DNA of 64,000 nucleotides from Amoebidium appalachense. Its lineage: Eukaryota; Protista; Ichthyosporea. How positions within the stretch are numbered: position 1 is the first letter of the stretch; every line of letters starts with the position of its first letter. The DNA lies in the NCBI GenBank assembly GCA_963693365.1, contig CAVNZM010000002.1, positions 1,859,649-1,923,648 of the forward strand. The letters are read 5' to 3'. The translations under genes and the position numbers were made by a program. Below are positions 32,754-57,056 of this stretch, piece by piece. A model generated the notes under the pieces. The model was not told where the DNA came from and did no database searches. It was given only the letters and a program-made list of their open reading frames with translations.

Positions 32754-35700
32754 CTAAATCAAACAAGATGATTGAATTCGTACCAACGTGTATGCCTGAC
32801 CAGTAGTAAGATCATCCACCCACCTTTCATCGTTAGCTTGTTTGTCCAATGACCTCTGCAGGCCCTCCAACTCCAATCTCTTGACCTCCACATCGGCAGC
32901 CAGCCGAGTGCACTCAGCATGCATCTTGGCCTGGAGTGACGTAACCATCTTCTGCTGCTCCTCAAGCCACTTCAACGCCGCCGCCTTTTCCAGAGAGAGC
33001 TCCTTGGATGCGGCCCTCTCTATCAGCAGTTCGGAGAGGAGGTGGTCGCCTCTCTGCTTCTGTTCGTCGAGCTCCTGTTTCAGTGCCGAGTTCTTTTGCA
33101 CCTCCTCCATTCGCCGTTGCTCCGCACGTTCGCGAAGCCGTCGTTCGCTAACAATTTTGACGTCGGCGGACTGGTGCTCGCCTTCGAGTGCTGCAATCTG
33201 TCGGCGCAAATCGGCGAGTTGTTGCTCGTTTTCGGTCCGGAGCCGTTGCAGTGTTGCTTCTACCTTGGTGAGCTTGCCCTCGAGTGCAGCCTTCTTGCGG
33301 TGGAGCAGACTACTGGTCTTGGCATGGTCGGCATTGGCTGCCTCAAGCCCATCACACTCAGTGCGTAGGCGGGAGATTTCGGCATCCCGCTCCTGCACAG
33401 TGGCGGAAAGTGTGTCGAGCCGGGACTTGCTTACCTGCTGCTCAAGGGCAAGCAGGCTGTGCAGTTCCTCGGCAACCTGCCGGCCCACCATGTAGAGCTG
33501 CCGAAGAATCTTGTTGCAATCTTCCTGGCTGGTCTTGGCTTGCCCTGTGACCACCTGCAGCCGCAATTCGGCCTCATCACGCTCTGCCTGCAGCTGCCTG
33601 AGCCGCTGTTCATAATCGTCAACCACGGCCGACTGCCCGGTGATGTCGCTCCTCAACCCGTCCATCAGCGTGGCCAGCGCTACGGCCTGCTCCTGCACAC
33701 CCTGTGCCTCGTATATGACCTGGCTCAACTGGGCTGCAAGTGCATTGCACTCTTGCTGCTCCTTGGCTAGGGTTTGCTGCAAGGTGGCCAGCTCTTGCCT
33801 GTTGCGTGCTGTGGTGCGGTCGGCAGCCTGAATCTTGGCTGTCATTTCAGCCGTTGTTCGTGACGTCTCGTCCAGCTGACTGCGCAGGTGGTCGATTGTG
33901 GCCTCCAGTGTGGCCTTCTCTGCTGCCATGGCGCCATGCTGCTGTGTAGCTGCAGCCAGAGAGGCACGTGCTTGCTGGAGGCTGGCCTGCTCCTTGGCGA
34001 GGGTGTCCTGTGCCGCTGTCCTGGCTGCTTGCTGCAGCTGCAGATCGTACTTGGCGTTTTTGGCACGGTGGCGTGCCACATTGGCCTTGTTCTCTGCTAT
34101 CTGCTGGTTCTTCTGCGCTGCTTGAAGACCAGCAGCCGCATCAGCCAGTTGCGCCGTTAGCGAGGTCATGGCTTGCTGCTGGCTCACCTGCTCGGAGCGT
34201 AGCACCTGAACACGGGCATCCAGGACCCCAGCTTCGTGCTTGATGCCTTCAACAGCAGCGGAAAGTTCATGCACCTGGGCAACCAGTGCCTCGGCTTCCG
34301 AACGGAGATTGGCTGCCAGGAGCTCATCTTTTGCGGCCTGTTCATCATGGGCTGCCTGTTGGGCCACAGTATCCAATTCTACCTGTGCCACCTCTCTCAG
34401 TGCCCTCTGTGTTGTGTCCAGGTTCTGGCGGAGCTGGGCAAGCTCAGCAGCCAGCTTGCTCTGCACAGCAACTGCATCGGCCTCTTGCTGCTTGGCCATG
34501 CTAAGCGCTTGCTGGGCATCCACGAGTGCCCGGCGCACTTCAGCAACATGGCTTTCTGCCAACAATTTGGCGGCCTGTTGTTGAACAGCGTGGGAAGCTG
34601 CCTCCTCTGCCTGCTCGGAAGCAGTCTTGGCTTTGGTCTTGGCAGCATCAAGACACCCTTGTGAAGAAGTCAGCTCGCTTTCGGCAACAGCAGCTTTCTG
34701 CAAAAGCCCGGCGATCTCATTCTCGGTTGATTCATGCTGGCCACAGAGCCCGTGTGTTCTGGCTCGACAAGCTGTTATCTGCATTAGCAAGCCTTGGGTC
34801 TCACCTTCAATTGCATCCGCCTCACTCACAAGCACCCTTATGACAGCCTGGCAGGCGTCACTGGCGACCTGCTGCTGCTGCTGCATCTCGGCGTGGCACT
34901 GGGCCTCGGTGTCTGCTGCGGCCTTGGCTTGCTCAGCCTGGGCCCTGCCGTTGGCGGCACTCGTTTCCTGCAATGCCAGATCTGCCAGCCTGGCCATCAA
35001 GACACCAATGGCAGCCTGGGCCTCCTTCTCCTTGGCCCGGGCACTGTCCAACTCCTCGGACGCTGCAGCCACCGTCTGCTTGGCCGTGGACACACGGGCC
35101 TCTGCCTCACCCTGGGCAGTGTGCAGCTGGGCTGCCTCGTTGGTAGCCTCCTCTGCACACTTGCCGGCTGCAACGGCTGCCTCTTCGGCTGCCTGCTGTG
35201 CAGCTGTGGCGTCGCTGAGTGCCCTGAGTGCATCAGCCAATCGGGCTTCCTGGGCCACTAGGCTGGCATTGAACTGCTGCTGCTGCTCATCAAGCTGCTG
35301 CAGCTGCCTGGCCGTGTCAGCCAGTTGGCCGGCCAAATGTGCAGCCTCCTTGTCAAGCTGCTCGGCCTCCCCGGTCAGGGCTCTGATGGCAGCCTGGCAG
35401 GCGTCACTGGCGGCCTGCTGCTGCTGCTGCACCTCAGCGTGGCCCTGGGCCTCGGTGTCTGCTGCGGCCTTGGCCTGCTCGGCCTGGGCCCTGCTGTTGG
35501 CGGCACTCGTTTCCTGCAATGCCAGATCTGCCAGCCTGGCCTCCAACACATCAATGGCAGCCTGGGCCTCCTTCTCCTTGGCCCGGGCACTGCCCAACTC
35601 CTCGTGAGCTGCAGCCACCGTCTGCTTGGCCGTGGACACACGGGCCTCTGCCTCACCCTGGGCAGTGTACAGCCGGGCTGCCACGTTGGTAACCTCCTCT

Positions 35701-56700: not shown

Positions 56701-57056
56701 AACACCCAGGCGGTATGCCAATGACACAAACCTGGGGCTAGGGATTTGCAACAAAGTTTTGACACTGGCTCCTGATTATCAATCATACATCCCATATACT
56801 GTCACCAAAATTTCTCAAGAAGCTCGCTGAATATCAAGCAAATTTCGTTTGTAAACTGAAACATAAAAATAGAAAACTAAAAATATTACGGCCAGGGGAT
56901 ATATTTGGGGATTTTGCATTACGGGACTTTCACTGGCCTACCTGGTGCAAGACAGTCTGCACATTTCTGGTTCTCGGGTTGGCTGTGCAGTTGCTCGAGC
57001 TGTACCCGCAACAACTCGGGGTCGGCCGGGCTGGCATTCAATGAGTCGGATGACAT
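32754..57056 (-). CDS. Giant ArfGAP-domain coiled-coil repeat protein (~6,000 aa); exons 57056-56942, 55673-55436, 54678-54594, 53674-53084, 51490-51428, 49631-~32824/32754
   Basis: All five junctions are GT-AG and phase-compatible (1,2,0,0,0); spliced N-terminus PENQKCADCLAPGTIWANIRLGVFLCPSCAFVHR..W..EL..M..GGN..ERKAFVEAKY fits the ArfGAP CX2CX16CX2CX4R motif; the rest is an A/Q/E/L heptad-rich ORF; further small 3' exons near 31.4-31.9 kb are possible. Confidence 0.8.
34830..47660 (-). repeat. Coding tandem array of ~23.5 x 546-bp (182-aa) units
   Basis: Marker GCCAGATC recurs in exact 546-bp register from 34975 to 47533 (24 positions by arithmetic; spot-checked at 35521, 38251, 40981, 46441). 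Confidence 0.95.
50681..51325. repeat. Intronic ~180-bp tandem repeat (3 copies) with a diverged homologue at 32088-32347
   Basis: Shared blocks AGTACGAAGTACA, CAGAGCCCATCCTCAGGG, GAGTTTCG and GATCAAAGACGAGCAGGGTTGCTTATGCA. Confidence 0.85.
54025..54261. repeat. Long intronic inverted repeat / hairpin
   Basis: Perfect 25-bp stem 54135-54159 / 54169-54193 with a 9-nt loop, extended by an imperfect outer stem of ~65 bp past a one-sided bulge. Confidence 0.9.
54886..54975. repeat. (TG)n microsatellite in an intron
   Basis: Direct reading. Confidence 0.95.

Follow-up and report, generated by a model that had tools for sequence, protein, structure and literature searches.

The minus strand of a 64,000-nt stretch of the Amoebidium appalachense genome (the window, in which all positions below are counted) carries a six-exon gene whose product joins an ArfGAP-fold head, through a basic Ser-rich linker, to a predicted coiled coil of about 5,700 residues. 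We tentatively read this protein as a long-range tether or spacer, with a head that would bind Arf-GTP rather than efficiently inactivate Arf. An initial annotation of the same DNA had proposed an ArfGAP fused to a very long heptad rod, with an active GTPase-activating protein (GAP) at its tip and a role in uncoating. The fusion, the splice between exons 5 and 6 and the upper length estimate stand, whereas an active tip is not supported as stated and an uncoating role has no direct support.

Splicing the window sequence at the six exons first proposed (Table 1) yields a frame of 17,970 nt (5,989 aa) with a single, terminal stop, and all five introns run from GT to AG, which upholds both the exon coordinates and the in-phase splicing. 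Among 144 open sets of alternative junctions for exons 1–3, this set ranks second (71.5 bits), and the top set (73.5 bits) differs solely in placing the exon 3 acceptor 6 nt away. The exon 3 donor is GTAAGT, in the phase required by the exon 4 acceptor, and the first Met of exon 4 appears only at codon 133. Transcript data come from one run (X1) of one study, presumed but not recorded to be RNA, which contains 0.98 of the sampled words from the unique 5′ part of exon 6. X1 contigs were aligned to positions 47600–49730, covering this unique part and its flank; they span 47602–49633 at a depth of about 29, and none extends into the intron. A 2,050-nt contig parts from the genomic sequence at 49633; its loose end of 30 letters has a single match in the window, at 51430, where exon 5 has its 3′ end. 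The 1,796-nt GT–AG intron 5 has thus been removed exactly as predicted. Upstream of exon 6 the contig holds 1,627 nt, compared with 1,092 coding nt in exons 1–5 and 654 nt in exons 4 and 5 alone, which suffices for all upstream exons, although the exon 5/6 joint alone is seen directly. Of the five joints listed earlier, 51428/49631 is observed in this one contig, and the other four are predicted from sequence.

The rod is built largely from repeats. As first described, a Ser/Lys-rich linker precedes a nearly proline-free rod (two Pro in residues 411–5989) that has the heptad pattern of a long coiled coil, but the tandem array of 546-bp units that makes up most of it had been overlooked. The dominant period is 3.5 in the array and 3.50–3.53 across most other rod segments. 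The heptad signal exceeds a z of 2 in 55 of the 62 rod windows after residue 270, and its phase stays between 1.54 and 1.96 from about residue 730 to 5,730, so there is no shift over about 5,000 residues; this sequence-based prediction agrees with the rod as originally proposed. Each unit has 52 a/d positions; Leu/Ile/Val/Met fill 19 of them and Ala another 19, with Leu-rich and Ala-rich stretches in alternation. Net charge is about −14 per unit, and strong charge periodicity is absent. A unit would measure ~27 nm, and residues 268–5,966 (5,699 residues at 0.1485 nm each) would extend 846 nm if they form an extended two-stranded coil, in line with the ~0.8 micrometre first estimated as an upper length; an excerpt of PMC4310744 gives 0.15 nm per residue for a coiled coil. 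The single-chain fold predicted for two units is a pair of long helices, with low confidence in a gap at 133–191. This two-unit model returned no fold match, and a homodimer prediction on 1.5 units scored 0.00 and gave no answer. Pfam matches to ATG16, DUF1664, ADIP and similar families were set aside as generic coiled-coil similarity, and long antisense or shifted open frames across the array as by-products of composition. Elsewhere in the rod, a 21-bp (one-heptad) tandem repeat of 3.9 copies lies at 49114–49194 in the unique part of exon 6, and exon 5 shares 53% identity with the last part of exon 4. Growth by whole heptads appears at three scales, 7, 21 (exon 5, 63 nt) and 182 aa.

Variation among the 23 units indicates what has been retained. 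They hold 222 distinct single-base variants, of which 68 are synonymous, 154 nonsynonymous and none nonsense. When the same mutation spectrum is placed randomly (5,000 simulations), 10.6 nonsense variants are expected, and not one simulation lacked them; new prolines number 2 against 8.6 expected (P about 0.003). The nonsynonymous/synonymous ratio is about 0.88, an excess of synonymous changes that does not reach significance (P 0.078). Since stops and prolines have been purged, the array is translated, with frame and helix maintained even as the sequence drifts. This variation fits the pattern of spacer coiled coils, which keep ‘length and helix, not sequence’ according to an excerpt of PMC5082667. 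Pairwise differences range from 0 to 64 nt across the 22 units compared, and units 4 and 9 of this set show none. A block of five units is nearly duplicated, with exact matches of up to 1,118 nt between positions five units apart. The array is dynamic, and its copy number could be off by one such block; because most unit pairs differ by 10–64 nt, the bulk of it is not an assembly artefact. CpG transitions are enriched within the array (34836–47393), at 28 of 60 CpG positions against 55 of 311 other C/G positions, which suggests gene-body CpG methylation. Observed/expected CpG is 0.46 in the array and 0.79 in the unique 5′ part of exon 6.

At the other end of the chain, the spliced product contains C32-A-D-C35-X16-C52-P-S-C55-AFVH-R60, so the zinc finger with its catalytic arginine (CADC-X16-CPSC-AFVH-R) is present as originally read; an excerpt of PMC2542466 defines the ArfGAP family by CX2CX16CX2CX4R. 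The Pfam ArfGap profile (PF01412) matches exon 1 over profile positions 3–21 (E 0.0076) and exon 2 over 26–85 (E 3.2e-7; 30.9 bits, above the curated cut-off of 28.7), in colinear order, while exon 3 alone (28 aa) has no Pfam match. A custom ArfGAP profile of 131 positions was built from six references, a seventh (P0013) being omitted because the motif pattern failed. It aligns with the spliced product over positions 4–121, exon 3 included (E 5.8e-22), so the last ArfGAP helix comes from exon 3. Profile searching thus bears out the domain call, and by motif and profile the protein belongs to the ArfGAP domain family. In a structure model of exon 2 alone, built using an ArfGAP alignment (predicted local distance difference test, pLDDT, 63), all 16 fold matches listed of 18 are ArfGAP domains, none with E below 0.001. 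The best sequence matches among solved structures are SMAP1 and SMAP2 (PDB 2crr and 2iqj; E 4.8e-5 and 5.1e-4), followed by ADAP1. The SMAP margin is small (26.9 and 23.6 bits versus 23.0 for ADAP1) and ADAP1 comes first by fold, so a SMAP affinity is only tentative.

The head is nevertheless degenerate beyond its arginine. It keeps 18 of the 26 columns invariant in the six references, W42 and R60 among them, but shares only 27–34% identity with reference ArfGAPs; the stretch after the arginine is rewritten, and G-x-H is lost. The Asp that precedes the Trp of L-D-x-W by two residues, present in 8/8 references and in the SMAP1, SMAP2 and ACAP1 alignments, is Ser76 here, and the residue after the third Cys, Ile/Thr in 8/8 references, is Pro53. 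Ismail et al. are said to have reported in 2010 that this Asp, D484 of ASAP3, is catalytic and positions the switch II glutamine. A catalytic role for the Asp was not found in our literature search, and in an excerpt of PMC6724607 no residues are named beyond the arginine finger and the Arf glutamine. In PDB 3LVQ, the ArfGAP residues W451 and I462 contact Arf6 (bioRxiv 10.1101/237289, in excerpt); mapped by spacing, they would correspond to W42 and P53. With the arginine kept but the Asp and G-x-H lost, and Pro in place of Ile/Thr, GAP activity of the head appears doubtful, and the active GAP at the rod tip that had been envisaged is not supported. The clathrin box L[LI][DEN][LF][DE] does not occur in 5,966 residues, and no W-box, NPF or DPF/DPW motif or transmembrane helix was found in the chain, leaving the ‘uncoating tether’ without direct support. 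We assign the protein neither to the active GAPs nor to the SMAPs or golgins.

Both ends of the gene may extend beyond the six-exon frame. An acceptor AG sits 22 nt upstream of the ATG, which implies further 5′ untranslated region (UTR) exons, and the remaining 535 nt of upstream contig sequence would fit the candidate UTR exons in length. After 32824 lies a probable donor site, GAAAG followed by GTGGGT, which resembles the exon 2 donor, with G-rich simple sequence soon beyond it. Positions 32823–32754, the last 23 codons, may be intron rather than coding; several in-phase acceptors occur past 32824, none decisive. What was first listed as an anonymous giant open reading frame (ORF) is the exon 6 frame, although its final 23 codons may not belong to it. 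Given this possible intron, the real C-terminus may lie in further exons, and a far-end anchor could be absent from the model. The non-repeat C-terminal segment of the known frame has no GRIP, GRAB or other curated Pfam match and no transmembrane helix. A dispersed repeat of ~180–220 bp, possibly a non-autonomous element, occurs at 51153–51326 and 50837–51052 (intron 5) and at 32176–32347, just past the giant exon (76–88% identity).

In the tether or spacer reading, the head would dock on an Arf-GTP-bearing membrane (Golgi, endosome or cortex), assisted by the basic linker, and would work like the GRAB end of GMAP-210. Two chains would pair into a parallel rod of up to about 0.85 micrometre, whose far end would bind a second membrane or a cytoskeletal structure. 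Unequal crossing-over would set rod length by whole units of 26 heptads and so keep the register. A bolder version is possible but doubtful: an ArfGAP turned into the Arf-gripping head of one uninterrupted coil almost twice as long as that of giantin, its reach tuned 27 nm at a time as 26-heptad units are gained or lost, making a micrometre-scale membrane tether or organelle spacer unlike any described ArfGAP or golgin family.

Several observations weigh against a tether or spacer. Core Ala is as frequent as large hydrophobics (19 versus 19 per 52 a/d positions), and protection of Leu/Ile/Val core sites falls short of significance (2 versus 3.8, P 0.20; also P 0.37), which leaves a stable parallel dimer uncertain. 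Golgin rods are often broken, whereas this one is unbroken over 5,000 residues, and a search of the known frame found no far-end membrane anchor. The loss of the conserved Asp together with the Ile-to-Pro53 change, at a position that contacts Arf, could abolish Arf binding along with catalysis. Finally, one of five joints has been observed, in a single contig from a single study and a run only presumed to be RNA.

It is unlikely that the protein is instead a structural fibre subunit, with rods packed laterally into a striated or rootlet-like filament whose period is tied to the 27-nm unit, and with the ArfGAP fold as an anchor or relic. The unbroken register, the exact 26-heptad modules and the alternation of Leu and Ala cores would suit regular lateral packing, and no terminal membrane anchor was found, in keeping with a fibre; however, the high negative charge of each unit, lacking strong periodicity, disfavours self-assembly, and the near-neutral drift of the surface is unlike that of a many-contact filament. 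A ROCK-like arrangement, in which an active GAP on a molecular ruler would switch Arf off only at a fixed distance from an anchor, seems rather unlikely. This idea, already raised by the initial annotation, retains the intact CX2CX16CX2CX4R motif, the 18 conserved invariant columns and the precedent of ROCK2 for an enzyme on a ruler (PMC5082667, in excerpt). It fits poorly with a head that has lost the Asp and G-x-H, carries Pro53 and is so distant from the references, and whole-unit duplication, as in the identical units 4 and 9, would not hold a fixed distance.

We consider it improbable that a moderately long ArfGAP–coiled-coil is the functional protein, with an array of 23 units that is unstable, has expanded because it is tolerated, and was in part inflated or wrongly joined during assembly. 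The nearly duplicated five-unit block and the near-neutral amino-acid drift speak for such an array, and X1 contigs were aligned to the unique 5′ part of exon 6 only, but the differences between most unit pairs leave no room for simple collapse or inflation, the rod would still have about 4,800 residues without five units, and stops and prolines have been purged across units. That exons 1–3 (a small ArfGAP) and exons 4–6 (the rod) form separate transcripts is very improbable: the exon 3/4 joint is unseen and has no profile support, but exons 4 and 5 together reach 654 nt, far short of the 1,627 nt that the contig holds upstream, the exon 3 donor is in phase with exon 4, and exon 4 offers so late a first Met.

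Table 1 Features of the giant ArfGAP–coiled-coil gene in the window.
Feature	Position	Strand	Content
Candidate 5′ UTR exons	58716..59897	-	Inferred; donors after 59442 and 58716; TATAAA at 59905-59900
Exon 1, coding	56942..57056	-	Start codon, ArfGAP first helix, first CxxC (C32, C35)
Exon 2	55436..55673	-	W42, second CxxC, arginine finger R60, degenerate segment with S76, SMAP-like P-x-x-F-x-R-P-Q
Exon 3	54594..54678	-	ArfGAP last helix F-V-E-A-K-Y-K-K-R-K-Y (by profile alignment), start of linker
Exon 4	53084..53674	-	Ser/Lys/Pro-rich linker (about aa 147-267), then start of helical rod
Exon 5	51428..51490	-	21 aa = three heptads; joined to exon 6 in an X1 contig
Giant exon 6	32754..49631	-	16.9 kb open frame; may stop at the donor after 32824, not at 32754
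Diverged 24th unit	47394..47939	-	Roughly aa 929-1110; identity with a typical unit 59%
Array of 23 tandem 546-bp units	34836..47393	-	Unit = 182 aa = 26 heptads; no indels
Non-repeat C-terminal coiled-coil segment	32824..34835	-	About 670 aa

The window is intron-rich and rich in simple repeats, and its left third carries Ty1/copia-type elements. A convergent neighbouring gene includes an exon on the plus strand (26197–26385) with a methyl-CpG-binding domain (Pfam MBD, E 2.4e-8; best solved matches MeCP2), with further probable exons near 25800–26010 and 27270–28150. Two Ty1/copia copies, at 3223–9607 (+) and about 13960–20340 (−), lie in inverted orientation and are 99.8% identical; the polyprotein frame of the left copy is split near 5980, and that of the right is a single frame of 1,476 codons. 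Between them, a plus-strand reverse transcriptase frame (9565–11598; RVT_1, E 9.7e-32) is a fragment of another retroelement, and further 554-bp copies resembling long terminal repeats lie near the pair. Tandem satellite-like arrays occupy 61600–64000, upstream of the gene.

Our homologue searches found no relatives. Exon 2 gave no relatives among 28 candidates in proteins of 138–2,000 aa, and residues 1–1,100 of the giant exon gave none among 968 in proteins of 3,093–9,844 aa; both are weak blanks, with 2,000–3,093 aa outside the range. A HMMER scan with exon 2 returned seven matches, one an ArfGAP-C2 protein (35%) and six repeat-protein artefacts without ArfGap. In metagenomes, the repeat unit matched none of 593 stretches, and the one match of exon 2 in 172, a bacterial locus, was judged to be chance. 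Neither the giant ORF nor a copia ORF has an exact match in the collection searched, and Rfam has no match in 21000–64000. An atlas search with two units reached a best score of 0.82, a lead only, and one with an ArfGAP returned generic ArfGAP clusters only. Our literature search, which did not cover the eukaryote-wide survey of Schlacht et al. 2013, found no ArfGAP with a long coiled coil or giant architecture. Within that scope, the arrangement is unlike described ArfGAP subfamilies, as had been suspected. The human ArfGAP subfamilies and the six ArfGAPs of the last eukaryotic common ancestor show no such architecture in excerpts of PMC2542466 and PMC6724607, and the longest human ArfGAP among the table rows listed in PMC2542466 has 1,704 aa.

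The gene is so far an orphan of one lineage. If real at full length, its ~5,700-residue rod, with ~5,000 residues free of any register break, exceeds the longest coiled coil known to a 2016 review. It would offer a natural test of maximal coiled-coil length and of the features that selection preserves in a pure spacer, here continuity and helix rather than sequence. If the tether reading is true, reuse of an ArfGAP as a targeting head would be an independent route to a golgin-like tether.

Known systems share parts of this design. ACAP and GIT likewise carry an ArfGAP domain and a helical oligomerisation element in one chain; the coiled coil of GIT is short. In ACAP, the ‘coiled coil’ is a BAR domain (PMC2542466, in excerpt). 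SMAP1 and SMAP2 also begin with an ArfGAP domain followed by a low-complexity linker, and P-x-x-F-x-R-P-Q is common to them and to the present protein, which differs in lacking a clathrin box, in having lost the conserved Asp and in its added 5,700-residue rod. In ROCK2, too, a head of catalytic type caps a parallel coiled coil of unconstrained sequence, but its rod is 107 nm and conserved in length, whereas the rod described here is about eight times longer and repeat-expandable, with a head that may be inactive. The golgins GMAP-210 and giantin also consist of predicted coiled coil over most of their length, and GMAP-210 binds Arf1-GTP through a terminal domain (GRAB) on its long rod (PMC4310744, in excerpt). 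The Arf-directed end here is an N-terminal ArfGAP fold rather than a C-terminal GRIP or GRAB domain or transmembrane anchor. Giantin, with a 3,056-residue rod of about 0.5 micrometre, was the longest coiled coil identified according to an excerpt of the 2016 review (PMC5082667); the present rod is about 1.9 times as long, consists of 182-aa units that are nearly identical and is free of the breaks that occur so often in golgins.

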